A stretch of 64,000 nt of DNA, taken from positions 1 through 64,000 of IMG/VR virus record IMGVR_UViG_3300021399_000152; one strand, written 5' to 3'. This document shows positions 2,951 to 60,830 of this stretch, piece by piece; the first letter of the stretch is position 1, and each line of letters begins with the position of its first letter. A program made the position numbers and the translations under genes. A model generated the notes under the pieces. It worked only from the letters and a program-made list of their open reading frames with translations. It did not search any database and had not been told where the DNA came from. This DNA is from a virus.

Positions 2951-3148
2951 ATGCTGTCTATTTCAAGTTGCCCGTTTTGCGGGCATCAGTTTTCAGATGA
3001 AGATCGTGAATTGATTCAAACAAAACTTAACGAGAAAGATAAAAATGGCAAATACAAACTTGGTGGATTCCGTATCATTTGCACTGACTGCAACGCAGAA
3101 ATTACATTGATACGGAAATCCAAGTACGAATGGTTGGAGGATGAATGA
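2951..3148 (+). CDS. zinc-ribbon protein (CPFCG...CTDC)
   Basis: ATG 2951 with AGAGGTG RBS; two CxxC pairs. Confidence 0.5.
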   Translation: MLSISSCPFCGHQFSDEDRELIQTKLNEKDKNGKYKLGGFRIICTDCNAEITLIRKSKYEWLEDE

Positions 3149-4165: not shown

Positions 4166-4751
4166 ACGAACCTTTGATGACCACAATGTTGTAAGCATTT
4201 CACCTGAGCTTACAAGCGAAGATCTCAGGTGTGTGCTTGATGGTAAAACTTATGCAACAGAAAAAGTCGATGGTGCGTGTTGCGCATTTTATAATGGTGT
4301 CTTTTATAAAAGATATGATGCAAAGAAAGGGAAAACACCTCCGCCCGATGCTATTGCATGCTGTGACCCGGATCCAATCACTGGACACTGGCCTCACTGG
4401 GTTCCTATAAAACGTGATGATCCATCATCTAAATGGTTTCTGGAGGCTCGTGACAATATTTGCGATGCTCCTTGGCTGACATATGAAGAACAATTGGGGC
4501 AAGGTACATATGAAGCTGTTGGACCACACTTCAATGGCAATCCTTATCATTTGCCAATCGATATGTTGATCAAGCATGGCTCCATTAAATTGAAGGATGT
4601 ACCCTTTACTTTTGAAGGAATTAAAGAATACCTGCGAACACATGAGATCGAAGGTATTGTGTTCTGGAATGATGATGGGCCTGTCTGCAAGATCAAGAGG
4701 ACTGACTTTGGTTTTGAGTGGCCCATGAAACAGGAGCAAAAAGATGGATGA
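4140..4751 (+). CDS. putative minimal nucleotidyltransferase of the ligase/capping superfamily (RNA/DNA ligase-like)
   Basis: Motif I 'KVDG' at K42 (TYATEKVDGACC), motif IV-like 'EGIVFW' and motif V-like 'VCKIKR' near the C-terminus; spacing consistent with covalent NTase fold. Function not verified. Confidence 0.4.
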   Translation: MRKIPTLFKRTFDDHNVVSISPELTSEDLRCVLDGKTYATEKVDGACCAFYNGVFYKRYDAKKGKTPPPDAIACCDPDPITGHWPHWVPIKRDDPSSKWFLEARDNICDAPWLTYEEQLGQGTYEAVGPHFNGNPYHLPIDMLIKHGSIKLKDVPFTFEGIKEYLRTHEIEGIVFWNDDGPVCKIKRTDFGFEWPMKQEQKDG

Positions 4752-5710: not shown

Positions 5711-5914
5711 ATGGAAATTGTACATTGCAAAGAATGTAAGTATGCCCTAATGACATACAGCGGCGAAGCAAAGTATTGCCTCTTCTGGCAGAATGCAATA
5801 GACGATGAAGATGGGCCGCTCCAAGCTCTGTATCTTGATGGTGACTTCTTCTGCGCAGGCGGAGAAAAGAAAGATGACTCTGTTAAACAAATTACTTACG
5901 AGGAGAAAGAGTAA
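5711..5914 (+). CDS. hypothetical Cys-containing protein
   Basis: ORF, CKECKY...C..FFCAGG. Confidence 0.45.
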   Translation: MEIVHCKECKYALMTYSGEAKYCLFWQNAIDDEDGPLQALYLDGDFFCAGGEKKDDSVKQITYEEKE

Positions 5915-6983: not shown

Positions 6984-7208
6984 ATGACTGATAATGAAAA
7001 AGTTCTGATGGAACTCAAAAGAGATGTTCTGCGATTGCTGAAGCAGAACGAAGCAAAGCCTGTTACTTATTATATCAATGAATACACAGGACTTCCTGTG
7101 GCAACATGTCCAAGCTGTGGAAAATGTTTGAAACAATTTCAGCAAAGTTATGATGATGAGGAGACGAAGTTCTGCTCGTATTGTGGTCAGGCGGTGGTGT
7201 GGAAATGA
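6984..7208 (+). CDS. Lar-like (restriction-alleviation family) zinc-ribbon protein
   Basis: CPSCGKC...CSYCGQAVVWK* C-terminus, paralogous to 7581..7853. Confidence 0.45.
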   Translation: MTDNEKVLMELKRDVLRLLKQNEAKPVTYYINEYTGLPVATCPSCGKCLKQFQQSYDDEETKFCSYCGQAVVWK

Positions 7209-8499: not shown

Positions 8500-8731
8500 C
8501 ATGAGAATGTTTGTAGATATTCGCGTTCATCAAGTTGTGAGCCCTGATCATTATGACATATACAGCGACCTCATTGACATGATTGATATGCTTGAGGAGT
8601 ATCTGACAAATGTTGATTGCGAAGCAGCAGAGCATGACGGCAAAGGTTGCCTCGGATATAGTTATCAAGGCGACGATGAGCCGATACAAACATGCAAGTA
8701 CTGCCAAAAGTATACCGGGAACATAGAATAA
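8465..8731 (+). CDS. hypothetical protein with C-terminal CKYCQ motif
   Basis: ATG after AAGGAG. Confidence 0.45.
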   Translation: MKLKEALHTLDNMRMFVDIRVHQVVSPDHYDIYSDLIDMIDMLEEYLTNVDCEAAEHDGKGCLGYSYQGDDEPIQTCKYCQKYTGNIE

Positions 8732-8746
8732 GGAGATATTGTTGAC

Positions 8747-9142
8747 ATGGTTTGGTTTTGGGTAATTATCTTTTCTGTGCCGCTGATCGCTATTGTTGCA
8801 CTAATATTCAGTGGCGTAGAAGTAAAGATTGAAGAGAATAATGGTTGGCTCGTCCGCTGGATGAAGTATCTCAAATGCGGTGCGATTCATGGGCATGCCT
8901 ACCATGCAGGTAGTTGCGCAAGATGCGGCAAGGCTATGCCAAAGCACAAGCACGAGCTCAAGCTTGATCAATATAATAAAGCATTGCTTGGGCTGAAATG
9001 CTGCACGGTCGTTGGTAATGACGCAAAGAAATGTGTGCTCTGTCCTTATATGAATGAAAAAGATTGCATCAATATAATGAAGAATGATGCGCTTGAGTCT
9101 ATGGCAACATTTGAAAACGGAGGTACGGAGAATGCCAAGTGA
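8747..9142 (+). CDS. membrane-anchored Cys/His-rich protein
   Basis: N-terminal TM helix, multiple Cys/His pairs. Confidence 0.5.
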   Translation: MVWFWVIIFSVPLIAIVALIFSGVEVKIEENNGWLVRWMKYLKCGAIHGHAYHAGSCARCGKAMPKHKHELKLDQYNKALLGLKCCTVVGNDAKKCVLCPYMNEKDCINIMKNDALESMATFENGGTENAK

Positions 9143-9401
9143 TAAACTGACATCGGAAGAAGTCATTAAACTTGTGTGCAATGTGATCGGCAGCATTCAT
9201 CCGGTTGGCGATAGTCGTATCGATGCGGACCACTTTGACAATCTGCTCATCATGATTGATCTTACAGATTGGTGTATTGCACAAATCCATCATGCAAGTC
9301 TGAATAAATACAGTGAAATGGGCAGTGTTCGGGCAATTGGCAAGAGAGCAAGTAAAGCTGAAAGAGACATCCATCTTGATACAGAGCAAGAAGAGGAATA
9401 A
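9132..9401 (+). CDS. hypothetical protein, paralog of 10059..10346
   Basis: ATG 9132 after GGAGGT; shares 'KLT.EEVIKLV.NV.G.I...' and 'L.IMI.LTDWCI..I' with the downstream paralog. Confidence 0.5.
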   Translation: MPSDKLTSEEVIKLVCNVIGSIHPVGDSRIDADHFDNLLIMIDLTDWCIAQIHHASLNKYSEMGSVRAIGKRASKAERDIHLDTEQEEE

Positions 9402-9405
9402 GAGT

Positions 9406-9780
9406 ATGGCATATTGTGATTATGGAGCATCCGTATACAAAAATGGTGTGCGTCAGCTTGATAAAGAAGACGCATTTTTGTTTGAGGATACAAGGTCGGC
9501 AGCTTATCATGGAGTAATGGGCGATGGTGACATCAGGGTCGCCTGTTACAAGCAATATCTTCCGCAGATCTTTAAGCGAACCAAGGATGGTTGCGAAGAG
9601 ATCCCGTTTGTTGATGAATATACGGACCGGCTCGAATTCGGGACCATCTATACAGAGTGCGATGGGTATCTGTTTGAATTTCGGCAAGGCGATATGACTT
9701 GCTTCGCAATGATGACAGAGCCAGACGGCACAAAGTGGACATGCAATTATGGTTACGGCATCGAAACGGAGGACGAATGA
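9406..9780 (+). CDS. hypothetical protein
   Basis: ATG 9406 after GAGGAATAAGAG. Confidence 0.5.
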   Translation: MAYCDYGASVYKNGVRQLDKEDAFLFEDTRSAAYHGVMGDGDIRVACYKQYLPQIFKRTKDGCEEIPFVDEYTDRLEFGTIYTECDGYLFEFRQGDMTCFAMMTEPDGTKWTCNYGYGIETEDE

Positions 9781-18521: not shown

Positions 18522-18758
18522 GCAATGGAGTGGGGATCATTTCTTGTAGGATGTTGTGCTGGTGCACTTGTTATGCTGATCATTTTCCTGCTCAGTACAA
18601 CTTGTATATTCATGAGTATTCGAAAGTGAGACGCGTTGCCTCATTGGAACAGGGCATCTCGCTAAGGGATGGCAGGCCGTTCGAGTCGGTATTGGGCGAG
18701 GCAGACCCATGCAAGTTCGATTCTTGCACGCGTCATTCGTAAAGAGGTGAATTGTTGA

Positions 18759-18971: not shown

Positions 18972-19080
18972 GTTTTCATACAGACTACCTGTGTGTAATG
19001 TGATAGGTGATAAGTTGTAAGGGTATTTTTACAAAGCGAAATTCACATAAAAATATACAGTAAATATGTGAGGTGATTTC

Positions 19081-19281
19081 ATGGACCAAAACTGTACGAC
19101 ATGCAAGCTGAAGCTACGCGTCCAGATCTGTGACTACTCACAGGGTGGGTGCAGATATCAGGAACCAGATGGTGACTTTGTATGTCTTGGCATGGCTGAT
19201 AATGGTCTGGCATGTTATATGCATATGGCGGATCCACTTGTCGGTTGCGAAAGATGGAAGGCGGCTGATTCAGCAACATGA
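19081..19281 (+). CDS. Cys-rich small protein
   Basis: ORF after a 110-bp AT-rich intergenic region with GAGGTGATTTC RBS. Confidence 0.45.
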   Translation: MDQNCTTCKLKLRVQICDYSQGGCRYQEPDGDFVCLGMADNGLACYMHMADPLVGCERWKAADSAT

Positions 19282-19583
19282 AGACTTGTTATTGCTGCAA
19301 TGAACCGCTCGAGCACAGCCACACCATTGTGTTCGACGACCATGAGAAGTGTTTTGTGTGTGATGCCTGCTACCATAAGATCAGGGAGCGTGTTGCACAC
19401 ACTGATATCGACCATGATTATGAATTCGATATGACGTGGACGGGTTATTATGCTCAGTCTCCCACAAGGAATGGTTTGTATGATGTGGTCACAACCGATG
19501 GCGAGCGATGGCTCGCAGCTTACGATACGCGGACAAAAACATGGGATGTGGATAACGTCCTTCTATGGAAAGAGCGTGATTAA
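19278..19583 (+). CDS. hypothetical protein with N-terminal Cys cluster
   Basis: ORF. Confidence 0.5.
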   Translation: MKTCYCCNEPLEHSHTIVFDDHEKCFVCDACYHKIRERVAHTDIDHDYEFDMTWTGYYAQSPTRNGLYDVVTTDGERWLAAYDTRTKTWDVDNVLLWKERD

Positions 19584-19946
19584 ATGATCGTGACAACATA
19601 CTTTGCGAACATCAGACATCTGCCAGAGGAGTTCGTGCCCATCTCTATCTGCGGCAAAGCTCCGAAAGGTTACACAGGGTTGCAGTATAAGAAGCTGGCG
19701 CCAAAGTGGGAGTTCTTTCAGGAGTGGAAGCAGAACCATAACAACGATTACTATCTCAAATGCTTCGACGAGCAAGTGCTCGCGCCTCTGAATCAGGATG
19801 AGGTTGTCAAAGAGTTGAAGGAGCTGGCCGGATCAGATGATATAGCTCTCGTGTGCTACGAAAAGCCAGGTAAGTTTTGCCATCGGCATCGTGTTGCCAA
19901 ATGGTTGCGTCAGGGAGGCTACTATGTTTGTGAATTCATGCAGTGA
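19584..19946 (+). CDS. DUF488-like protein
   Basis: C-terminal 'VCYEKPGKFCHRHRVAKWL' matches the DUF488 C.E....CHR signature. Confidence 0.5.
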   Translation: MIVTTYFANIRHLPEEFVPISICGKAPKGYTGLQYKKLAPKWEFFQEWKQNHNNDYYLKCFDEQVLAPLNQDEVVKELKELAGSDDIALVCYEKPGKFCHRHRVAKWLRQGGYYVCEFMQ

Positions 19947-20039
19947 GTGTCTATATCAGCAATGCTGCCCCGTTATGTGGAGCTTGCACAACGCAGCTTG
20001 CCTGACGCTTGCGAAGCAAAAGAATGATGATAGTGAATA

Positions 20040-20054
20040 TTGCACAAATGATAA
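20040..20054. repeat. 15-mer TTGCACAAATGATAA (copy 1), with inverted partner TTTGTGCAA at 20064-20072
   Basis: Exact copy again at 21541-21555 directly after the int stop codon; related half-sites at 21657-21667 and 21786-21800. Confidence 0.5.
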
Positions 20055-20078
20055 TGAGTAACTTTGTGCAACATGTAT

Positions 20079-20104
20079 AAGCTTGCGCGAGCAAGCTTTA
20101 TTGA
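20079..20104 (+). terminator. palindromic hairpin (AAGCTTGC-gcga-GCAAGCTT) with short T-tract
   Basis: Perfect 8-bp stem followed by TATT; immediately upstream of tRNA-Gln. Confidence 0.35.
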
Positions 20105-20173
20105 GGTGTAGTTAAACGGCATAACAAGGGACTTTGACTCCCTCGTCGTAGGTTCGACCCCTACCACCTCAGT
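20102..20173 (+). tRNA. tRNA-Gln(UUG)
   Basis: Canonical cloverleaf: acceptor TGAGGTG/CACCTCA, D-arm GTTA-AACGGCA-TAAC, anticodon arm AGGGA-CTTTGAC-TCCCT, T-arm GTAGG-TTCGACC-CCTAC. Confidence 0.8.
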
Positions 20174-20190
20174 CTTTTTTATAAGGAGAG

Positions 20191-20403
20191 ATGTATATGA
20201 AGTTTTCGATCACAAAAACAAGCGACCATTGGCAGCATAGCGAAATTGTCGAGCGCGAAAGCCTCGAGCAAATAGTTAACGAATGTCTTGATCCGAAGTT
20301 CTACTATGGATCGACACCAGAAGTTGTTGTAAGCCGCCCGGAAACATGGGAAGCATCCGAATGTGACTATGTCATTGAAATTTACGACGACTGGCGTGAA
20401 TAA
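20191..20403 (+). CDS. hypothetical protein
   Basis: ORF with AGGAGAG RBS. Confidence 0.45.
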   Translation: MYMKFSITKTSDHWQHSEIVERESLEQIVNECLDPKFYYGSTPEVVVSRPETWEASECDYVIEIYDDWRE

Positions 20404-20424
20404 TTGCTGCGGAGGATGTATAAT

Positions 20425-21537
20425 ATGAGTGTGCAACTTGACAACGGAATATCTGCTGTTGCAGGAGAGAACGATATGCTGTACAGAGCAGTCATTACTA
20501 CACCAAAAGGCGAGCAGAAGTGGTTATCTGCGCCAAATATGAACGAGCTGGCCCGTCGAGCATTCGCTTACGGCATGGAGACGGGACCATCGCTCGCAAC
20601 GCCGACCTTTCAGAGCTATTCTGACAGTGTGCTCACAAGGTTTAAGGCGAACACGATCAAACAGACGACCATGATAGGGTACAGAGGGTATTGCAAGAAC
20701 TATCTGTACCCTTATTTCGGCAACATCATGATCGATTGCATCAATCCAGCAATGATCCAGAGCTACTTGAATAATGTCAAGTACCTTGCGAAGAAAACAT
20801 TGCACGAACATCTGCAATATATGATTCAGGTCTTCGATTATGCCATTGCCGAGCACTACATTGCAGAGAACCCGGCCAGAAACAAGATCATTACCATTCC
20901 TTCGAGGCGAATCACGACGAGAGATACGCTTGCAGAGGATGACATCCGTGATATTTATGAGCACTTGCCTGATCTCCGCCCAGAAGATGCGAGCATTGTT
21001 GCTTTTTATCTGTTCACAGGCATGAGGCGCGGCGAGCTCGCCGGATTGCAGAGAAAATTCATTGGGCAGGACTTTATCGACATAAAAAAAGAGGCTGTTT
21101 ATCCCGGAGGCAACGAACCATACCTCGATTACACGGGAAAAACAGCCAGCGCACTGCGTTTGGTGCCGATCATTGATATCCTGCGACCATTCATCAGCGA
21201 TTGCGATCCAGAGTACTATGTATATAGGAAGGAAAAGGATCCGCCAACGCTCGCAATGCATCGCAGAACGTGGGACCGCATCAAAAACACCATCGATATA
21301 CATGGTGCAACACCACATATCCTCCGCCACACGTTTATTACTGTGTGCAACAATGCCTGCATCGATCTGAAGACGACAAAACTGATCGTCGGACATTCAT
21401 CACAGGATATTACGCTTGGTCGGTACACTCACGGCATGAAAAGCATGCTCACGAGAGCCGCCACAGAGATCAACAATGAGTTCCTTGCAATCATTAACCC
21501 GTCCGAGCCCAAGCAGGACAACGTTTTGAGGGCTTGA
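20425..21537 (+). CDS. int: tyrosine site-specific integrase
   Basis: C-terminal catalytic signature 'HILRHTF...GHSS..ITLGRYTH'; N-terminal SAM-like domain; start at ATG 20425 after GGAGG. Confidence 0.85.
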   Translation: MSVQLDNGISAVAGENDMLYRAVITTPKGEQKWLSAPNMNELARRAFAYGMETGPSLATPTFQSYSDSVLTRFKANTIKQTTMIGYRGYCKNYLYPYFGNIMIDCINPAMIQSYLNNVKYLAKKTLHEHLQYMIQVFDYAIAEHYIAENPARNKIITIPSRRITTRDTLAEDDIRDIYEHLPDLRPEDASIVAFYLFTGMRRGELAGLQRKFIGQDFIDIKKEAVYPGGNEPYLDYTGKTASALRLVPIIDILRPFISDCDPEYYVYRKEKDPPTLAMHRRTWDRIKNTIDIHGATPHILRHTFITVCNNACIDLKTTKLIVGHSSQDITLGRYTHGMKSMLTRAATEINNEFLAIINPSEPKQDNVLRA

Positions 21538-21540
21538 TGG

Positions 21541-21555
21541 TTGCACAAATGATAA
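21541..21555. repeat. 15-mer TTGCACAAATGATAA (copy 2)
   Basis: Identical to 20040-20054; the two copies bracket the integrase gene. Confidence 0.5.
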
Positions 21556-21564
21556 AATATAACA

Positions 21565-21587
21565 TAAAAAAGAAGCGCCCCGCTTCC
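21565..21587 (-). terminator. rho-independent terminator read on the - strand (GAAGCGGGGCGCTTC + TTTTTT)
   Basis: Hairpin 21573-21587 with A6 on the + strand (T6 on -) immediately downstream of the tRNA fragment. Confidence 0.45.
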
Positions 21588-21610
21588 TGAGAAGTGAGAC
21601 GCCCCAACGC

Positions 21611-21666
21611 ATGGCTCCGATTGGATTCGAACCAATGACACTCCGGGTATGAACCGGGGGTTGCAC
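21611..21666 (-). other. attP-like core: 3' portion of a tRNA(CAU) (anticodon arm, T-arm, acceptor 3' strand), no 5' half
   Basis: On - strand: ...CCGG-TTCATAC-CCGG...ATTGG-TTCGAAT-CCAAT-CGGAGCC-A; no matching 5' acceptor or D-arm upstream; adjacent to int. Confidence 0.55.
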
Positions 21667-21732
21667 AAAATATGACAGCAGATATTCACAAAAGTATTTG
21701 ATCGTCAAGTATTTCTCTGAATACCGGCGAAA

Positions 21733-21772
21733 TAAAAAGGGGTACACCGTAAAAGTGTACCCCATTTTTATC
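21733..21772. terminator. bidirectional rho-independent terminator (GGGGTACAC-cgtaaaa-GTGTACCCC flanked by A- and T-tracts)
   Basis: 9-bp perfect stem, A5 upstream and T5 downstream; sits between convergent int and late/lysis operon. Confidence 0.6.
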
Positions 21773-21834
21773 CGAACTTAAATTTTGTGCACATTTGCAC
21801 ATTTTTCAACTGAAATTTTATACCAACTACACAA

Positions 21835-21925
21835 ACTCGTATGAAAAAGTATGCGTTATCGCAAAAACTCGTATGAAAAAGTGTGCATTATCACAAAAAG
21901 TCGTATGAAAAAGTTGTTATTCAGG
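21835..21925. repeat. three tandem ~32-bp direct repeats (ACTCGTATGAAAAAGTRTGCRTTATCRCAAAA)
   Basis: Copies at 21835-21866, 21867-21898, partial 21899-21925; next to att core, candidate arm-type sites. Confidence 0.55.
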
Positions 21926-22261
21926 CTGCTTAATGCCTGCGTCGATCTGTTTAAGGTTCAGCTCCTGCCAAGCAGCGTTAATGTTGGCAATAACAGCCTC
22001 GCTATCGATGTTCCAGCCTTCGTCGGAGAGCAGCTTGAGCGCATACTTCAGCTTCTCTTCGCCTTTATAGCGACCATACATGGCTTCAGCAGCGTTGACA
22101 GCAACATAACAGGCTTCAACGAGCCCCTTGGATTCAAGATACGGCATGACATGGCGGTCAAAAACGTACTTAACAATAACAGTAAAGATCATAATGAGCA
22201 CGCCAACGATGGCGGTCCATGGAAATTCTTTAATCAGGTCCATATGCACCCATCCTTTCAA
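21917..22261 (-). CDS. holin-like small membrane protein (114 aa)
   Basis: One N-terminal TM helix (WTAIVGVLIMIFTVIV), charged C-terminal tail; last gene of lysis cassette. Confidence 0.5.
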   Translation of the reverse strand: MKGWVHMDLIKEFPWTAIVGVLIMIFTVIVKYVFDRHVMPYLESKGLVEACYVAVNAAEAMYGRYKGEEKLKYALKLLSDEGWNIDSEAVIANINAAWQELNLKQIDAGIKQPE

Positions 22262-22554
22262 CCAACGCTCTCTTCTTCTTCGTCATTTTGCTGATTATCG
22301 AGAGCTTTCTGAATACTTTTTCTGTTCGTGGCGAAGTCTTCAAGCGAAGCCCGCCCAAAATAACCTGTCACAACTACGCCAGCGAGCGTTGAGAAGTATT
22401 GAATCAACCTCACAACGGCATCAATCTGGGCAACATCGGTACAAACAAACACGCATAACGCCATAGCAATGATCACAAGAGTAAAAACTCCGAGCAGCGA
22501 CCACTTGCATACGCGCTTGCTATATTGCACAAACTCTTTGTCCTGCTTTGTCAT
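22258..22554 (-). CDS. holin-like protein with two TM helices (98 aa from internal ATG)
   Basis: TM1 WSLLGVFTLVIIAMALCVFV, TM2 YFSTLAGVVVTGYF, acidic C-terminus; GAGGTG RBS before ATG 22554. Confidence 0.5.
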   Translation of the reverse strand: MTKQDKEFVQYSKRVCKWSLLGVFTLVIIAMALCVFVCTDVAQIDAVVRLIQYFSTLAGVVVTGYFGRASLEDFATNRKSIQKALDNQQNDEEEESVG

Positions 22555-22564
22555 ATGGCGCACC

Positions 22565-23044
22565 TCACTTTTCAATCGGGCATTCCTCAAGTCTTTCGAG
22601 AAAGTCCGTAGGAATGTGGTTGCGCCCGCCTTTCGTGTACGCATGATAGATGCGCTGCAGCGAAGCAAGTCCTGAAACAGTAATCGGGTCACGTCGCACA
22701 CCATGCTTGGTGTAAGCCGCCATCAATTTATCATAAGTAAGGGCGGCGCTTTGTTCCTGTACATCCACAAGTGTTGCCTCAATCCTTTCTGTGCGCTTGA
22801 TCAGATCATCAATACGCTGCAGTTGGCTTTCGTCATTCTTGCGGACACTGTTATCAAGGTCATCAATAGCCTGCATGATACGGGCTTCCATGCTTTCGCG
22901 AGACAGTCTGTCTTTTGCTTTAGCTCTGATCCATTCTTTGATGCTATCGATACCTTTGACGAAACCAACAATGACAGCAATTCCACCAGAAACAGTAACA
23001 AGAATACCCCACCAGCTAGAAAGAAGCTCTTCCATACAATACAC
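22565..23044 (-). CDS. membrane-anchored coiled-coil protein (possible lysis accessory protein)
   Basis: N-terminal TM (WWGILVTVSGGIAVIVGF) then coiled coil. Confidence 0.45.
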   Translation of the reverse strand: MYCMEELLSSWWGILVTVSGGIAVIVGFVKGIDSIKEWIRAKAKDRLSRESMEARIMQAIDDLDNSVRKNDESQLQRIDDLIKRTERIEATLVDVQEQSAALTYDKLMAAYTKHGVRRDPITVSGLASLQRIYHAYTKGGRNHIPTDFLERLEECPIEK

Positions 23045-27813: not shown

Positions 27814-30800
27814 TTAACTTAACATTGCGAGAAGCTGACGAAGTTGTGCTGCCGTGATCGTGACATCGCCTGTGCTGTCGTGGAGCGTGAGCGATCCGCC
27901 GTTGGCTGTAATGTTGCCAGCGAACCAACCGTTACCTGACCAATCGAGAGTGTAGCCGTTAGAACGAGTGACACTCTCAGGAGCTGCAGGATATTGCGGA
28001 TCAATACCATCTTCTCTTTCGACTGTTCCGTTGCCAACAATAACTGCATAAGTATCATTCGTGTCAATTATGTTAGCTCTGCCGGATACATGTTGACTCT
28101 GCCCATTTGCAACTGTTAATTCGCCTTCGCTGTGAGCATAATCTGCTCCAGCCAACGTAAGATTGCCTTCGATATGAGAAGCTATACCAGAAGCGCAACT
28201 CTCAACAAGCCATCCGTTTAGCGTTGTTTGTGATCCAAATGCCGGATCATTATAAGGGAACTTGCCATCAAACGTAATATCATACACACTGCCTGTGTGC
28301 GTTACAGACACAATTTTCCTAGCAACAAAAAAACCTTGTGTTCCTATTTTCACATAAACTACCATGCCAGGAAGAGGAGTCCCCGACAAATTACATCTAT
28401 ATGTTGTATCACTTATATACCCTGTAATTGTGCATGAGCTTTCTCCATATTCATATCCAGGATAACCGTTAAAAGTAGATGCATTTGAACCCAGACCATA
28501 TGCTAATGAATCAAAACCACTTGCATGTGAATAATTTCCTATGGCTTTTGTAGCATATCCTTCGCTATGACTACCTTCTCCGATTGCTAAAGTGCTGCTG
28601 CCTTCAGCGTGTGAATCCGCTCCAGAGAAATAACCACTGTAGTCTCCGGAATCATATGCTTCAGAAGATAAGAAATATCCACCAGCAGTACTTCCTGATC
28701 CCTCCGCATGAGAGCTTATACCGAGTGCGTGTGTATCGTATCCTTCAGAATGACTGTTATTGCTACCCGTGTTAGGAGGATAAAAATATATAGGAGTATG
28801 ATTGAAAACATATCCTGCGAGTCCATTAATGTCAATTGAATTCTCTGATCGATTAATAGTATCAACTACACCAGCATCATTAAAATCTGGAGACCATGCG
28901 ATAAAAAATTCGTTTATATTGTTCAATGTGTTGGTTGTATTAGTATCTGATGCATCATATGTGAAGTGAGTGTCATAAGTGCCAGTAATATATAAGTAAT
29001 AACTACTTCCACTTAATTCGCCTGTTCCTTCTGCCACGGAGTAATTACCAGTTGAAGTCAAATTACGCCCGAACGCCATGCCACCCAGACCAATATTTTG
29101 CGGATCGAAAGTATGATTGTTATTTCCTACAGAAATACTTTCGCCTGTAATCATTGGAGCTTTAACTCCCTGTGCGAAAACTCCTGCTCCATTCCAGTCA
29201 ACAGTAAACCCATTTCGACGAGCAGAATCTCTATATCCTATTCCTGTAATATGAGCATATTGATTCTGTGTGTCTTCAATATTGTACTTTCCTTCAACGT
29301 GTTGATTCTGTCCTCGTGCAATAGTGCCAAGTCCTTCTACATGTGCATTTGAAGCAGTTGGGTGCGTGTAGGTGTTGCTACCTTCTGCGTGAGAATTAAT
29401 TCCATCAGCTTGTGTTATGCTGCCTTCCGCATGGCTATTGTCACCGTATGCGCTGGTATTAGCTCCTTCTGAGTGTGCCGACGTACCAAATGCAACAGAA
29501 CTGTATCCTTCACTGTGCGAATTATCTCCGTATGCAGAAGATCCATAAACCGTTACAGTCAGCCCTGACACGATGCCTAATGTGTTATTTAGAAGAGTAA
29601 TTTTACTATTTGTTGTGTCAATGTTAGTTATAGCAACTAAATCGTTAGTACTGGGATTAACTACATACATGCCACGTCTCAGGGCTTGCGGGATAGAAGC
29701 ACAATTATATACAGTATTAGACGTTGACTGAATCGACGAAGTAAGTGTTAAGGAATATGTGCGAGTTTCACCTTCGCTATGAGCATACTTACCGGCAATA
29801 GTTCCATATCCTTCCGCATGTCCGCCTGTTTTTTGGGCATGTGTTTCTTCTCCTTCTGCATGAGCCGACATACCATTTGCTTTGGTGGAATAACCTTCCG
29901 CATGTGCAAAACTATCTGTTGCTTGTGTGTTGCATCCTTCAGCAAAAGAGCCAGTACCAGAAGCTGTCTGTGTATTAGTTATTGCGGAATCACCAGTCCC
30001 AACAGTCCAACTCTTCGTCTGTACAGATCCGACACCACTTCCACTCTCAACAGGACTATCTCCGCCCGCATTAGCATCAACATATGCTTTAGTTGCCAGA
30101 TCATTAGCGTTCGTTACAGGAGCGGGGTTCGCAACTGTGCCAGCGGAAACTGTTCCTGCGTACCAAGCGTTGCCATTCCAGTCAAGCGTGTGAGCGTTTG
30201 AACGCTCTCCAGCGACACCGTTGCCAACAATATGTGCATAAGTATTGCTCGTGTCTTCGATATTAAATTTGCCTTGTGCGTGTTGGGCTACACCCTTTGC
30301 GATAGTTCCAATGCCCTCTGTGTGTGAATCAGTTCCAATAGCTTGAGTTCCAGATCCTTCCGTATGTGCACTTCCGCCAATGGCAATATTATCTACCAAC
30401 ATGAAGACTGCATTTGTCAAAGCGGGATGAGGATTAATGACTTGGAAAGTTTGATGCGAAGTATCTATTGCTGAAATTTTCAGACAATTGCAAGCGAAAT
30501 CTTCTCCAGTATAAACGAGATACATACCGACAACACTGCTATTCAAATCGGCGGCAGTGTTATCTGGGAAGTCATAATTCAAAGTATGACTCTCACTGGT
30601 AACATTCTGTTCGCCTGTCAGTAAGACTTTAACACCCGCAAAATAACCTCTAGAACTTCCTTCTGCATGTGCGCCACTACCAAACGATGCAGTTATATAT
30701 CCTTCTGCATGTGCGCCACGACCATCTTGCACCCTATAAACAGTAATGGTTTGGCATCCTTCAGCATGAGATATATAAGTATTTGCCATAGTGCTATGGC

Positions 30801-32085
30801 CTTCTGAATGAGACTTATCTCCTGATATAGTTCTATAGCCTTCAGCATGACTGCAATCACCAGAAGCATTTGTTTCATGTCCCTCTGCGTGAGAGTATCC
30901 GCCTTTTGCTTTAGTGAGATTTCCTTCTGCATGTGTATCATTCAGTACAGCAATATTAGATGTCCCTTCTATGTGAGAAGCACTTCCAAATGCTCCATAC
31001 TTAAAGACATTATAATTTCCAGCGAGAACTCTTTTACTTAGCTTTATTTGTAGGTTTGCTGAGTCTATTCCAACAATTCGAACATAATCTTGAACTCCGT
31101 TGATGTCAGTGGCAAGAATAAAATTATCAACATTAATAAGATTAGACACAGAATCAACGGAATAAATTCTATTTGTAGCATCCACTTCTGCTGTTATTCT
31201 TATCTGTGTAAACCCGCCATAACTATAACTTTGTCCTTCTGAGTGAGAATACTGACCACCAGCCAGTGTGCCATACCCTTCCGCATGTGAATATGTTCCA
31301 AAAGCTTCAGTATTTGCTCCTTCTGCATGAGATGCGTTTCCAAGTGCGTCTGTTTGTAAACCTTCACTATGTGAACGTGTTCCACTAGCGACCGTTCCGT
31401 GTCCCTCAGCATGAGACTCCTGTCCTGACGCACTGGACTGATAACCTTCGGCATGAGAATAATCCGCAGTAGCTCCTGTTCCATACCCTTCCGCTGTTGC
31501 ATAATTTCCACTCGCTGTATTACCATCTACATCATTAACAAGAACAGCCCTAGTTCCTATACCGTTCTCTATATTCAAATTATTTTCATTCGGAGGCAAT
31601 AACCTACGATCAAACTGAGTATACGTAGTTACCGATCCATATATCCTTGCGGAGCTAGGAGCAGTCGGCACAAAGAAAGTAAGTGCCGTGTAATTGGAAT
31701 TCGGTTCAAGCCTGAAAACATCCTGAAGATAAATACTTGGATCGTCAGTATAAGTAAACTGATCAGCAACACTATTATACGTAGTGCCATCGATCGTCAC
31801 ATTAAACTCTTCATGGTTAGTAAACATTCTCTGCAACAGGGTTAACAATTCTGACGTGAGCGGAATTGTTGCCTTATACTCTGTGCCTTCCTGCGTGAAG
31901 TCCGCAGAGGTAAACTCACCAAGTACGAATGAGTCTTCCGTCACACTGTATCCATATCCCGGAGTCTGCACCCATTCACCATTCACAGACACAAGTCCAG
32001 TGCCATCTGCACCGGGAGCAGGAAGTCGTGCATCTTTAAGATTATAAGTAGTACTGTCTACTCTGATCCTGCTTATATCTGCCAT
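27814..32085 (-). CDS. tail fibre protein, 1,423 aa, beta-solenoid with ~70 'sHAEG' repeats
   Basis: N-terminal 'MADISRIRVDSTTYNLKDA' module shared with next gene; dozens of (S/T)HAEG..T.A.G repeats; C-terminal 'YTLDWSGNGWFAGNITANGGSLTL'. Confidence 0.75.
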   Translation of the reverse strand: MADISRIRVDSTTYNLKDARLPAPGADGTGLVSVNGEWVQTPGYGYSVTEDSFVLGEFTSADFTQEGTEYKATIPLTSELLTLLQRMFTNHEEFNVTIDGTTYNSVADQFTYTDDPSIYLQDVFRLEPNSNYTALTFFVPTAPSSARIYGSVTTYTQFDRRLLPPNENNLNIENGIGTRAVLVNDVDGNTASGNYATAEGYGTGATADYSHAEGYQSSASGQESHAEGHGTVASGTRSHSEGLQTDALGNASHAEGANTEAFGTYSHAEGYGTLAGGQYSHSEGQSYSYGGFTQIRITAEVDATNRIYSVDSVSNLINVDNFILATDINGVQDYVRIVGIDSANLQIKLSKRVLAGNYNVFKYGAFGSASHIEGTSNIAVLNDTHAEGNLTKAKGGYSHAEGHETNASGDCSHAEGYRTISGDKSHSEGHSTMANTYISHAEGCQTITVYRVQDGRGAHAEGYITASFGSGAHAEGSSRGYFAGVKVLLTGEQNVTSESHTLNYDFPDNTAADLNSSVVGMYLVYTGEDFACNCLKISAIDTSHQTFQVINPHPALTNAVFMLVDNIAIGGSAHTEGSGTQAIGTDSHTEGIGTIAKGVAQHAQGKFNIEDTSNTYAHIVGNGVAGERSNAHTLDWNGNAWYAGTVSAGTVANPAPVTNANDLATKAYVDANAGGDSPVESGSGVGSVQTKSWTVGTGDSAITNTQTASGTGSFAEGCNTQATDSFAHAEGYSTKANGMSAHAEGEETHAQKTGGHAEGYGTIAGKYAHSEGETRTYSLTLTSSIQSTSNTVYNCASIPQALRRGMYVVNPSTNDLVAITNIDTTNSKITLLNNTLGIVSGLTVTVYGSSAYGDNSHSEGYSSVAFGTSAHSEGANTSAYGDNSHAEGSITQADGINSHAEGSNTYTHPTASNAHVEGLGTIARGQNQHVEGKYNIEDTQNQYAHITGIGYRDSARRNGFTVDWNGAGVFAQGVKAPMITGESISVGNNNHTFDPQNIGLGGMAFGRNLTSTGNYSVAEGTGELSGSSYYLYITGTYDTHFTYDASDTNTTNTLNNINEFFIAWSPDFNDAGVVDTINRSENSIDINGLAGYVFNHTPIYFYPPNTGSNNSHSEGYDTHALGISSHAEGSGSTAGGYFLSSEAYDSGDYSGYFSGADSHAEGSSTLAIGEGSHSEGYATKAIGNYSHASGFDSLAYGLGSNASTFNGYPGYEYGESSCTITGYISDTTYRCNLSGTPLPGMVVYVKIGTQGFFVARKIVSVTHTGSVYDITFDGKFPYNDPAFGSQTTLNGWLVESCASGIASHIEGNLTLAGADYAHSEGELTVANGQSQHVSGRANIIDTNDTYAVIVGNGTVEREDGIDPQYPAAPESVTRSNGYTLDWSGNGWFAGNITANGGSLTLHDSTGDVTITAAQLRQLLAMLS

Positions 32086-36106: not shown

Positions 36107-39100
36107 TTATGGATTTTGCTGGCTCCAGACCCAGTTGATAGAGCCATTTGATTCATCAATGATTGCGTTAAGGTCGCCGATCTTAAAGCCATGAATAAAT
36201 TCACCTTGGTCAATAAATAGTTTTTGATCGTTAATGTATGCAACTTTTTGCGAACCTTCTTTAAATGCCAGCTCTCTGTTTGTAAGCTCTGCACTGAAGT
36301 CGCTCGTATTAGTGCCGAGCCTCAACACAGGAGCACCTGACTGATCTTGCTCAGCATGAATCCATGCTACAGCATCGTGTAAAGCATCAGCTGTTTCAAT
36401 TGTCACGCGAAGATCTGACTTGGTTTGGTTGATCGTTGTTCTTTGTAATGCATCTAATGTATTTGTAAATGTACTATGCTCTATTACTGTTTGTGTAATA
36501 TTATCCGGTTGCAATTGTATCTCTGCGTCTGTAACACGCTGCGCTATATTATTGAGATCATTCGTTGTCTGATTGTAAGCTTCGTTCAAAGAATTAATAA
36601 TTGGCTCAGAATAAACTGTAGCGTTAATGCCTTTCTCAAGCTTACAATGGTATATAAATATTTTAGCTTTATCTTTTTCTTCTACTGCTGACATAGCTTC
36701 GCTGTTCGCTGTTGCAGAAAACTTAACAGTAATAATATCAGACGTTGCCTTAAACGGAATAGTGATATACTGATATGTTTCGATTGTACCAGTAGGTTCA
36801 TATGTTATCTCAATAGGAAGCTGCGTCTCATACGGTTCAACAGCTACGCCATCTTCTCCAAGAATTGTGACGGAGCATTGCGTGTTGTGCAGTGTTGCAG
36901 CATAACAGCTGAATGTATAATATTCTCCGGCAACAACATTAGCACCAACATGCTCAATGCCGTATGGCATAGTCGTGCCAGTAGGTATCACAGCAAGTGT
37001 ATTGCACGAAGGATCTGTACGTGTAATAGAGTATTCGTTTACTGTCTCTGCATTATATATTTCTGTGAATCGACCAGGGTTCATTGTACTGTTGCTGACG
37101 ACAGCATCGGCTTGGAATGGTTCCCACTTTTGGTCAACGCCAACGACACCGGTCGAGCTGTATGTTGCGAAGCCGCCATTTGGCAAGATGTTGGCGCCGA
37201 TCATTGGGTCTGGCAAGCTTGATGCAACCCACTCTGTAGCGACATTGCCGGTCTGAACCATCAGCAAACGAATAGTTAGCTGAGTGTTATCTCTATACGG
37301 AACAACATTGATGGTAAGATTCATTGGTGGTGTTGCAGGCATTTGTACATTAGTGAATGGTGCAACAATTTTTGATTCATATAATTGCCCAACATAAGAA
37401 GTCATGACAGGAGTGCCGGTCATGCTGACATTTAGAGTAGCACTTTGAGTGCATGTTGCCACAAATGATACGGTATAGTCGCCAGATGCTTTAATCATAT
37501 GCAGCGGTAGTGTCATTGTGACACCAGCTCTAGGAATGTTTGACAATGTGATGCCATTATAGATGTTCTTTACGCACACAACACTGGCGTTATCTACAGT
37601 GGGGTTGTCATACGATTCAGCATACAAGTTAGTCTGACGAGTATTCTCAACAGAAGAAACCTTCTGGGAGATGTATCGTGGGTTTACATCGAGCACAGCC
37701 CGCTCAAGATTATGAACGTTGTCCTCAATATCATCTCGGCATTTGGAGAACTCCGTAGGGATTTCACCAAACTCAACCTTTGGCGAATGATAATTGATTA
37801 ACTGTGTTGTGCTTCCGTCAATGTATATGCCAAGCTTTGTTGCATTTGGAGGAAGGGTTGCGGAAACGGTCGACCATCCTTCGTTACCAGCAGCAATTTC
37901 GTTGCCATAATAATGAGTTGCTGTGTCACCAACATACACAACCAGATGTGCCCTGACAGTTGGCACAGGGTCCGGCATTGGTTCGATCAAAGAATTCTGA
38001 ATAAACACTCTGTACACGATAGAGTCAGAAGCCATCTCTGAATCTGTGAGATTAATGTTATTCAGCAAGTATGGAGTGTGAGCAAAGCGAGGTTCGGTCG
38101 ATGCACCTCGAAGCAAGTTGTCGCCATTTGAGTAATCGGTTTCATAGATCGCTGTATCGGCAACAATCTTAATGGACTGGTTGCCAACAAGGTTCAGTTC
38201 AGAGCCGACAGGTGCAGCGATCATTTCTGTTGTAATCGTGCCAGCCTCGATGAGGTTCGCCTTGATGTGACCACTCGTGATCAGGTCGGCAGTGAACCCT
38301 TCGCCAGTACCAAACGTGCGCCAGTTCCAGTCGCCGTCCTCATTCTTAGTGCTAGCCAAGCAGAAGCCTGCGCCGGTTAGCTTCATTGCGGACGAACCAT
38401 CAGACGTTTCAAAGATCCAGTTGCCGCGATCATCTTGATACACGTTTGATGTAGCGTTCGAAAGCTTCACCCTGTCGAGATCAAACTGGCCTTCGATATT
38501 CTCAGCGAGAATACGGTTGTATCTTCCGATCACAGCAGAGCGAGCGAACATTGTTTCGCGCCCACTAACACTGTTGGCAACCTCTGCGATATGAGCCATG
38601 ACATCTGCGAATGAGTGCTGGCCCATTGTCGTAAGGTTTGTGTTGATCTGGATCTGTGTCTTCCAAGGCTGATCAAGGCATGGCTTGAAGGTATCAATGT
38701 ATGCCCACTTGCTGATGCCTGTGTCATCGTCGATGAGGTGAGCGGCGGACCTTATTGTGACATGTTGATATTCTGGCAACATACCGTTGCTGGACTCAAT
38801 GGTGGCATTGCGGTAATCGACAAAGCTGATATTGTAAGTCTCTTCGGGATGCGAGATATGTTGCAGAGTTTTGAGAGCGTCATCGTAAAGCTTCTGTTCG
38901 TCGCCATCGACATAGGTTTCTTTCTGCCACCAACCTTCACGATACATCGAACCAAGCATGTTTGTCATAGTGTTCTGCCGCTGCTTTGAATTTTCCTGTG
39001 CTTGTATAAGAGCACTGCGATATACACCATAAGCATCATCAGCTGCATCAGCAAATGCTTTCAGCTGTGTGAGCAAACCTTTTCTTACACCGCTGCCAAT

Positions 39101-41830: not shown

Positions 41831-41843
41831 GACATCATCTCCT

Positions 41844-42935
41844 TTACATGAATGTGGGTGAGTACACAAACTTTAGCCGATCAATTGACATGGTCGTGAT
41901 CGGCGTGATCCAGATATCATCTGTATCAACAATGCGTATATTGTCGTAACTGGTGATAACTCCTTCGCCGATAAAACTGCGAAGAAATATATTATTGTTT
42001 TCCAGCCCCGTTATTTTATAAGGTTTATTCTGAACGACAGCATACTTTCCTATGACATCGTTTGACAAAGGTTTATCAATCTCTAAGCCGAGTTGATCAG
42101 TTTGCGCATCTATAATTAGCTGTCCATGCAAATTACTTGCTAGCGTTCTTGCAGGCGAAATCTGCACGAAGCCACGATCATGCCAAAGATATTTCATATC
42201 TTTATCAGTGCCATTCGTCAGATAGCAATAGCCGTTCAAGCTATCACACACATAGTACTTACCAGCCTGTGTCGTTTCTGCTGCGCTCATTGCCACGATC
42301 TTACAAGTCTGCCCAGTTGTCCTGTTCTCGATGAGCACACCTTGCCCAACATCACCAGCAATTTCCAAGGCAACATCTGCTGTTTCGTTACCGGGGTTCA
42401 TCACATGCAACTGTGTTTCTGCAGTGAGGTTCGTGTATTCGATAGGGAAGGCGCCAGTCATATTCACGAACATGTTTGAATTCGCTACGATATCATCGTA
42501 ATATGGATCATTTTGATCAAGATTTAAAAACTCACAGCGACCAAACGGATAGAAGCACTGCATACGGATCGTGATCATACCGTTAAACTTATTCGTAAGC
42601 TGCGTGTCATCGTAGCTCGTAATGGTCGCGTTATAATAAACCCAAGGCCGCCGCCCAAGCACGAGCTTGCCGGTCGCGCCGACCCTGTAAAAGCTCTCGA
42701 CTTGGGACAGGATACCTTCGGTAATTTTCGATTCTTCAAAAAACATACGAAGCACAATTTCTTTGGGCTTCTTTGTTGCACCATAGAAGTAACCACCATG
42801 GTGACCATCAAAAGTCTGCGAATGTATGTTCGAGGTTGTTGGCCTCCAGACATACATGTCACGAATGTCAGGAGCATACCTGAGGCCAAACTCACCACAG
42901 GAAACACCATTAAATGTGAAGGTCGATAATTCCAC
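41844..42935 (-). CDS. distal tail protein (Dit)
   Basis: N-terminal 'FTFNGVSCGEFGLRY' Dit signature; position between TMP and Tal. Confidence 0.7.
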   Translation of the reverse strand: MELSTFTFNGVSCGEFGLRYAPDIRDMYVWRPTTSNIHSQTFDGHHGGYFYGATKKPKEIVLRMFFEESKITEGILSQVESFYRVGATGKLVLGRRPWVYYNATITSYDDTQLTNKFNGMITIRMQCFYPFGRCEFLNLDQNDPYYDDIVANSNMFVNMTGAFPIEYTNLTAETQLHVMNPGNETADVALEIAGDVGQGVLIENRTTGQTCKIVAMSAAETTQAGKYYVCDSLNGYCYLTNGTDKDMKYLWHDRGFVQISPARTLASNLHGQLIIDAQTDQLGLEIDKPLSNDVIGKYAVVQNKPYKITGLENNNIFLRSFIGEGVITSYDNIRIVDTDDIWITPITTMSIDRLKFVYSPTFM

Positions 42936-60705: not shown

Positions 60706-60716
60706 AAATAATTAAA

Positions 60717-60791
60717 TGCCCAAGACGAGACTTGAACTCGTAGTTGTACGGATTTTAAGTCCGCTGTGTCTGCCTATTCCACCACTCGGGC
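60717..60791 (-). tRNA. tRNA with anticodon UAA (Leu) but class-I-sized variable region
   Basis: On - strand: GCCCGAG-TG-GTGG-AATAGGCA-GACAC-A-GCGGA-CTTAAAA-TCCGT-acaact-ACGAG-TTCAAGT-CTCGT-CTTGGGC-A; D-arm nearly identical to the tRNA-like family. Confidence 0.65.
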
Positions 60792-60830
60792 AAGCTTGCT
60801 AAGGACACGAATGCCCCTAGCAAATTGCGA

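Follow-up and report, generated by a model that had tools for sequence, protein, structure and literature searches.

The first 64,000 nucleotides (positions 1 to 64,000) of the IMG/VR virus record IMGVR_UViG_3300021399_000152, hereafter the window, carry a tyrosine integrase gene (int) beside the 3' part of a tRNA gene that has no 5' part. This arrangement raises two questions: whether the phage keeps here the attachment site (attP) through which it would enter a host tRNA gene, and in what way the integrase gene is connected with that site. The reading that we prefer, at a probability of roughly three in four, is that the locus is a phage-form attP at tRNA-Met with its tyrosine integrase, together with an RNA pairing between int and the far arm of attP that integration would undo. 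The attP in tRNA-Met is genuine and ordinary. In what follows, close relatives are contigs ~96% identical to the window, and L004/L037 denote a lineage whose integrase is 70% identical to that of the window.

The tRNA-Met piece as attachment-site core

The three elements on which the argument is built lie side by side.

20425-21537, plus strand: int, tyrosine integrase of 370 aa (Pfam PF00589, PF22022, PF14659)
21562..21588, minus strand: intrinsic terminator behind the tRNA piece and on the same strand (hairpin 21588-21570; 8-bp stem and T-run)
21612..21657, minus strand: attP core of 46 nt that match positions 28-73 of a tRNA(CAU), from the 5' strand of the anticodon stem to the discriminator base (Rfam tRNA model; conserved in L004/L037)

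Read on the minus strand from 21657 to 21612, the core is CCGGTTCATACCCGGAGTGTCATTGGTTCGAATCCAATCGGAGCCA, with the 3' end of tRNA-Met as ...CGGAGCCA, and it measures 46 nt, or 49 if three extra C's are included. The first-pass annotation, made from the sequence alone, had described a tRNA(CAU) 3' piece of ~55 nt on the strand opposite to int, followed by a terminator; both elements are present, but the piece is shorter than described. The Rfam tRNA model aligns its anticodon arm (CCGG/UUCAUAC/CCGG), variable loop, T arm and 3' acceptor strand in a 5'-truncated and weak match (16.8 bits, E = 0.34 in a 161-nt search), and ARAGORN calls no tRNA at the core. With the 5' acceptor strand and D arm missing there is no complete cloverleaf, so the piece fails as a functional phage-encoded tRNA gene. 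The 5' half (GGCTCCG plus D arm), which the first-pass annotation had thought worth seeking elsewhere in the phage, is absent from the 64-kb window, the rest of the ~115-kb genome not having been seen. The piece looks elongator-type, because its acceptor strand implies a G1:C72 pair and its anticodon stem is without the three G:C pairs of initiator tRNA. That stem, CCGG...CCGG, forms an inverted repeat around the 7-nt anticodon loop.

Comparison among relatives gives the core sharp limits. L004/L037 have an identical 46-nt block between flanks that diverge at once on either side, and among the close relatives the block has 0/46 variable sites, the spacer from int to the block having 6.8% and nearby DNA ~7%. 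L004/L037 possess the same lysis genes as the window and are without the phage tRNA-Gln gene, the small gene orf68 and the TTGCACAAATGATAA repeats that accompany int in the window (see below). A terminator stands at the equivalent place in L004, L022, L026/L027 and L028. More generally, the integrase subfamily repeats this layout at other tRNAs, with int followed by an opposite-strand terminator that is preceded by a tRNA 3' piece. A tRNA-Asn 3' piece occurs in phage form in L022, where the terminator follows, and in L033/L034. Integrated copies are likewise seen: in L002, int adjoins a complete tRNA-Asn, then host 5S and 23S rRNA, and in the integrated relatives L026/L027 the order is int, GTGACA repeats, an element-borne terminator, a complete tRNA-Lys and a host tRNA cluster.

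The places at which contigs break provide further evidence. Logan contigs, which we take to be de Bruijn assemblies with k=31 (so that 30 nt equals k-1), end inside the tRNA-Met block in five samples. Coming from the int side, the block breaks off after exactly 30 nt in L017, L020 and L021, after 45 nt in one contig, and after 41 nt in L038, which is of the L004 type; coming from the far side, L015 retains 30 nt of the block and L014 31 nt. The tRNA-Asn contigs L003, L023, L035 and L036 also end exactly 30 nt in, and at tRNA-Asn integration is documented. Because contigs break 30 nt in, the tRNA-Met block must have a second sequence context in those samples, and this context is not the L004-type phage, since it differs from the window phage at the base right after A73.

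Two IMG/VR phages of ~92 kb (L039 and L040), retrieved by a relaxed pattern search, bear near-identical tRNA-Met 3' pieces in which CCA is encoded; the two share a terminator, and L040 also has an integrase-like open reading frame (ORF) that is convergent. The T stems of the three tRNA-Met pieces differ by compensatory pairs (ATTGG/CCAAT, ACTGG/CCAGT and ATAGG/CCTAT), as expected of real tRNA genes in related hosts. In L039 the DNA turns GC-rich past the terminator, so the site could mark the boundary between a prophage and its host.

Complementary blocks in the int 5' end and the far arm

The opening nucleotides of the int ORF have complements in the DNA that directly follows the core on its int-distal side (the far arm). 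Two blocks of int, A and B, have partners A' and B' there, and corresponding pairs occur in other lineages (WC, Watson-Crick pairs).

20430-20439, plus strand: block A of the window, int nt +6..+15, pairing with 21658-21667 (8 WC and 2 G.U; -12.7 kcal/mol)
21658..21667, plus strand: block A' of the window, GGGTTGCACA, complementary to int nt +6..+15 and overlapping the core-adjacent copy of the 9-mer TTGCACAAA
20447-20461, plus strand: block B of the window, int nt +23..+37, pairing with 21673-21687 (13/13 WC and 2 G.U; -20.7 kcal/mol)
21673..21687, plus strand: block B' of the window, TGACAGCAGATATTC, partner of int nt +23..+37 beyond the core
L004 (Int 70% identical), block A: 651-661 with 1890-1900 (10 WC and 1 G.U)
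L004, block B: 669-683 with 1908-1922 (15/15)
L022 (Int 56%; tRNA-Asn), block B: 5716-5732 with 7054-7070 (16 WC and 1 G.U)
L033/L034 (49% cluster member; tRNA-Asn, different phage type), block A: 3002-3010 with 4205-4213 (9/9)
L033/L034, block B: 3031-3046 with 4247-4262 (16/16)
21739..21763, bidirectional terminator: end of the int transcript (plus strand) and of the lysis operon (minus strand), its hairpin kept in L004 via compensatory changes

The four B sequences, GAATATCTGCTGT, GAATACCTGTTCGTT, TTTAGAAAATATTGGCT and GAAATGAACCAAGCCC, are mutually unrelated. Perfect runs between int nt +21..+46 and the DNA past the core nevertheless reach 13 in the window, 15 in L004, 14 in L022 (17 with one G.U) and 16 in L033, against longest runs of 9-11 in control windows and, for the window phage, of at most 10 in 906 controls. 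The L004 counterpart of block A differs in sequence from that of the window and has its own matching partner: A' is conserved in L004 as AGATGCACAA, which fits nt +5..+15 of the L004 int. The B block starts between +21 and +31 from the ATG in every one of the four lineages, and in three of them a second pair spans nt +2..+15. Far-side geometry is alike in L004, L022 and L033; B' lies at unequal distances from the core (+16 vs +68), with the position of B in int fixed. Because the perfect partners are specific to each lineage, we take base pairing, rather than a shared protein site, to be what is preserved. At five distant integrase loci no comparable complementary run was found.

Both partner regions are also conserved at short range. 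The first 95 nt of int have 0 variable sites among close relatives vs 7.2% in the remaining gene (P about 1.5e-3), and A' and B' fall within +1..+30 past the core, 30 nt without a variable site in the same contigs. When transcripts of ~1.4 kb, from the int leader to the downstream terminator, were folded, the minimum-free-energy structure contained the long-range helix in 3/3 lineages folded, which restates the complementarity only. A sliding scan with RNAduplex placed the int 5' region first in L004 and L022 and only about third in the 64-kb window; perfect-run statistics were used in place of this ranking. The literature searched, with incomplete coverage, held no description of a pairing between an int 5' end and the far arm.

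On the plus strand no U-tract follows the hairpin that lies between int and the core, and the terminator scan lists this hairpin for the minus strand only. The first plus-strand terminator after int is that at 21739-21763, so the int mRNA of the free phage should hold both partners.

Two further elements were noticed in the far arm. An identical 25-nt block, ATTTTTATCCGAACTTAAATTTT, occurs at 21759-21783 and at L004 2003-2027 amid diverged DNA; it begins in the T-run of the bidirectional terminator and could be a host-factor or arm site. On the minus strand, 21701-21682 reads TTGACG, 15 nt, TGTGAATAT, with TGTGAATA conserved in L004. The consensus promoter scan made no call here; the segment may be an extended -10 promoter directed at the core, from which a ~105-nt RNA could arise that comprises block A, the tRNA piece and also the terminator.

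Proposed mechanism and its significance

The anticodon stem and loop are a classical place for strand exchange. At this locus, the exchange would take place at the anticodon-stem inverted repeat around the 7-nt loop. Integration would join the 5' part of the host tRNA to the 3' part supplied by the phage, which brings its own terminator, and int would afterwards lie convergent to the rebuilt tRNA gene. In the unintegrated genome, the plus-strand int transcript would read through the core to 21739-21763, and its 3' untranslated region (UTR) would pair with its own translation start region. Integration would leave the far arm at the opposite prophage end and thereby remove the pairing, so that int expression would come to depend on the integration state. 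As to the sign of the effect, we favour repression: as long as the phage is unintegrated, less Int would be made from read-through transcripts because of the pairing. We advance tentatively, leaning slightly towards doubt, the full proposition that the int mRNA senses the integration state, its 3' UTR past the attP core pairing with about the first 13 codons in what may be a pseudoknot-like, quasi-continuous helix, as a form of retroregulation distinct from lambda sib that is suggested by co-variation in at least four lineages at different tRNAs.

The attP is routine, and it helps to pin down where an uncultured rumen phage of ~115 kb integrates, with the 46-mer as a sequence tag for finding the host. 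If the complementarity acts in RNA, it would be a simple way to tie integrase expression to integration, unlike the textbook lambda sib. The complement between the int 5' end and the far arm could, moreover, be a signature by which to locate attP and to tell free from integrated forms in metagenomic phage contigs.

Repeats around the integrase

Several repeated sequences surround int and had been put forward as candidate arm-type integrase or repressor sites. They are given here with the two genes that they enclose, neither of which figures in the first-pass annotation.

20040..20071, no strand assigned: dyad TTGCACAAA-N14-TTTGTGCAA, upstream of tRNA-Gln; the first of the two 15-mers TTGCACAAATGATAA forms its left arm (motif search of the window)
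20101-20174, plus strand: complete, phage-encoded tRNA-Gln(UUG) (ARAGORN; Rfam RF00005, 62.7 bits), with no variable site among relatives
20197..20403, plus strand: 68-aa acidic ORF (orf68), called in all related contigs; the L004/L037 lineage is without it
21541..21555, plus strand: second, exact copy of TTGCACAAATGATAA, 3 nt past the int stop, which may be an arm-type site or else an additional partner of block A
21786..21801, plus strand: small hairpin TGTGCA-CATT-TGCACA with T-run, which holds the TTGCACA sites 21784/21795 (terminator/hairpin scan)
21829..21925, no strand assigned: tandem 32-bp repeat in 2.7-3 copies, downstream of and overlapping the holin stop (Tandem Repeats Finder: 21829-21914, 2.7 copies, 88% matches)

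The 15-mer TTGCACAAATGATAA is exact at 20040 and 21541, with the inverted partner TTTGTGCAA at 20063, just as first described, and tRNA-Gln and orf68 sit between the upstream dyad and int. The related half-sites exist as well, although at 21661 (exact) and 21784 (inverted, 1 mismatch) instead of 21657 and 21786, with an extra TTGCACA at 21795. The 9-mer TTGCACAAA has 8 copies in the window vs 1.5 expected, a number that 0/100 shuffles reach, and 4/8 of the copies lie within 1.63 kb around int. The cluster is thus real, and arm-type binding is possible but unsupported. Among close relatives the 9-mer arms of the dyad are invariant (with low statistical power), and the spacer and positions 13-14 of the 15-mer (20052, 20053) vary. 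L004 keeps the second 15-mer loosely, as TGACACACGTATAAAA, and of the TTGCACAAA sites it keeps only the core-adjacent copy, as ATGCACAAA. This copy is complementary to int codons 2-5, which suggests a role in base pairing rather than as an arm-type protein site. At the place of 21784/21795 L004 has a different palindrome, TGCCAT-TTC-ATGGCA; the conserved feature there, judged from compensatory changes, is the hairpin and not the motif.

The 32-bp repeats had been given as three at 21835-21925. A tandem repeat is indeed there, in the form listed above, with a third copy just 69% like the first. As arm or repressor sites the repeats do poorly: they are absent from L004, which has an identical core, and they have 8 variable sites/97 nt (8.2%) among close relatives, the rate of neutral DNA. 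A function as arm sites is unlikely on both counts, and by this comparison the repeats probably lie outside the recombination site.

Integrase and phage setting

The catalytic residues of the integrase, R201/R202, H298-x-x-R301, H324 and Y334, are invariant in the family alignment. By tblastn, all matches of Int are at most 28.6% identical and mostly from Firmicutes and Mycobacterium phages, with Faecalibacterium phage Roos top-ranked; in IMG/VR no close relative of Int was found, and megablast of 19000-23000 against INPHARED phages gave no match. Two relatives have altered genes. In L001, int (8536-9555) has a 93-nt in-frame deletion, equivalent to window 21089-21181, which leaves 339 aa with the residues around KEAVYPGG...IIDI gone, and the product is probably a defective integrase variant. 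In L022 (5696-6813), int was called as two overlapping ORFs of 118 aa and 270 aa, which reflects a frameshift or else a fault of assembly; the same cluster has a member, P0155, with the full 372 aa.

The window is phage DNA. Small early-type ORFs run on the plus strand up to ~21.5 kb, and from 21917 to 60406 the minus strand encodes a holin-like gene, a SpoIID/NlpC-P60/SH3 lysin, tail genes and a 5803-aa ORF; the GC skew changes sign at ~21 kb. From this division of strands and the skew switch, the integration module lies at the meeting point of two convergent transcription units. Beyond attP, the phage genes begin with the holin-like gene:

21917..22243, minus strand: holin-like gene, 108 aa, weak Pfam match PF09682, adjoining int in at least 24 contigs

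The int-holin junction recurs across different samples, in more than 12 contigs of which several measure 112-118 kb, and the phage size is ~115 kb. Sample labels and the AUXO01 record alone suggest that the related contigs come from sheep and cattle rumen.

Other genes of the window deserve mention. A DUF488-N3a family protein is encoded at 19584-19946 (plus strand), directly upstream of the integration module; close relatives keep it and the L004 lineage is without it. Besides tRNA-Gln, ARAGORN alone calls tRNA-Ser(CGA) at 18653-18735 (plus strand) and tRNA-Leu(UAA) at 60716-60792 (minus strand), and the Rfam tRNA model does not report tRNA-Ser(CGA) at E<=1. For orf68 there is no Pfam match. 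The 5803-aa ORF (42995-60406, minus strand) has as its sole Pfam match a minor-tail (tape-measure-type) domain at residues ~2550-2758, and its length would be extraordinary for a tape-measure-like protein. ORFs of 1920 aa (36107-41869) and 1423 aa (27814-32085) come after it.

Weighing the alternatives

Several results weigh against the attP with its RNA pairing. The first-pass annotation expected integration into a host tRNA that would receive a replacement 3' end. The identity of the block and the integrated relatives support the expectation, but the host gene and an integrated copy were not found. None of 185,579 GTDB species genomes has a tRNA with this 3' end in two exact-pattern scans; both patterns demanded CCGGT upstream of the anticodon and are possibly too strict, because the break of L038 at 41 nt suggests that the shared block may begin only at U33. 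In JGI metagenomes only the phage itself matched (AUXO017702179.1) and no host tRNA, IMG/VR holds neither an exact 46-mer nor the 41-mer TCATACCCGGAGTGTCATTGGTTCGAATCCAATCGGAGCCA, and none of ~40 contigs is an integrated copy of this phage. For the integrase, the N-terminal 70 aa have no arm-binding domain that Pfam recognizes; the AlphaFold2 model is poor (predicted confidence, pLDDT, 47) and unfit for a fold search, with two strands and a helix at residues 20-53. Regarding the pairing, the blocks are ordered A, B ... A', B', which is pseudoknot order and not a simple hairpin. Block B begins at codon 8, outside the window in which pairing normally blocks initiation. The helix ends have G.U vs A.C in 4 vs 2 of 14 cases, which leans weakly toward the plus strand and is not significant.

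The main rival, unlikely in our view, is that the inverted repeats at the int 5' end and the far arm act as DNA instead, either as Int, excisionase or repressor sites that autoregulate int or as inversion crossover sites around int and the core. Such a role would suit the membership of block A in the multi-copy, protein-site-like motif TTGCACAAA, the non-nested order of the blocks, which two independent site pairs would be expected to give, and the resemblance of the conserved TGTGAATA beside B' to a minus-strand extended -10 element. A protein site should, however, be degenerate within a phage and conserved between relatives, whereas the B blocks are unrelated between lineages yet form perfect 13-16-mers within each, and B' moves relative to the core (+16 vs +68) with the position in int fixed. 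An inversion switch between B and B' was rejected, as the inverted arrangement occurs in 0 of ~40 contigs. The two exact 15-mers bracket exactly tRNA-Gln, orf68 and int, as though they were the ends of a mobile or exchanged cassette and thus a recombination scar rather than working sites, and L004/L037 share the lysis genes and core but have no tRNA-Gln, orf68 or repeats. Such a cassette scar is improbable, given that the upstream copy has drifted in close relatives (20052 and 20053 vary) while its 9-mer stays, that the 9-mer is also found outside the cassette boundaries, at 20063, 21661 and 21784, and that no empty site was seen.

The attP itself is challenged less. One could regard the tRNA piece as the decayed remnant of a phage tRNA-Met gene with no part in integration, an active integrase then using another site, considering that the phage has other tRNA genes (Gln, Ser and Leu) and that neither a matching host tRNA nor an integrated form was found. 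Decay would hardly leave 46/46 identity amid diverged flanks, with sharp edges at the anticodon stem and base 73; moreover, integrase relatives with the same arrangement are seen integrated at their tRNAs and contig breaks reveal a second context of the block, which makes a remnant very improbable. For the window being a prophage-host junction there is nothing beyond the presence of the tRNA piece. The holin, lysin, tail and 5803-aa tape-measure-like genes on one side and early genes on the other, with the same junction in at least 12 contigs from different samples and up to 118 kb, refute this explanation to a point where hardly any credence is left to it. These contigs equally bear out the first-pass description of a phage-form attP with phage genes on both sides. 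We thus retain the phage-form attP at tRNA-Met and the RNA pairing.

Comparison with known systems

Phages and elements such as P4, P22 and HP1 provide examples of tRNA-targeting attP sites served by tyrosine integrases. The window resembles them in that int adjoins attP and that attP carries a tRNA 3' part, from which the gene would be rebuilt on integration; it differs in that the phage, at ~115 kb, is unusually large for such a module and that its arm-type sites are candidates. It has further likeness to an anticodon-loop class of tRNA attachment sites, which Williams is said to have set out in 2002: the block starts at the anticodon stem, with an inverted repeat around the 7-nt loop, and int would be convergent to the rebuilt tRNA. 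An attP at tRNA-Ser is described for Lactobacillus phage mv4.

In lambda, int is subject to retroregulation by sib (Schindler and Echols, 1981, as cited in PMC5300877). The window shares with it a cis element beyond att from int, which would be in the int transcript only when the phage is unintegrated and be removed by integration; A' and B' constitute such a far-side element, which integration would unlink from int. Whereas sib is a local 3' hairpin cut by RNase III, the complementarity in the window is with the int 5' end and not within the element, which would pair in pseudoknot order with the start of the int coding sequence 1.2 kb away.

In the hok mRNA of the hok/sok system of plasmid R1, the 5' and 3' ends fold back on each other (fbi/tac fold-back inhibition), and the toxin mRNA is activated by 3' trimming. 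The int mRNA of the window would similarly bring its 3' end into long-distance pairing with the region where its translation starts, with the difference that recombination of the DNA at attP, instead of trimming, would act as the switch. In the integration-dependent immunity of mycobacteriophages and in intP/intX of Mx8, attP lies inside the coding sequence, and integration changes the protein. There, as would be the case here, integration at attP alters the expression or the product of a lysogeny gene; in the window, by contrast, the coding sequence is untouched and only the RNA partner would be lost. Set beside these systems, the attP is of a known kind, and the unexpected and new part is that int and the far arm are complementary and co-vary.

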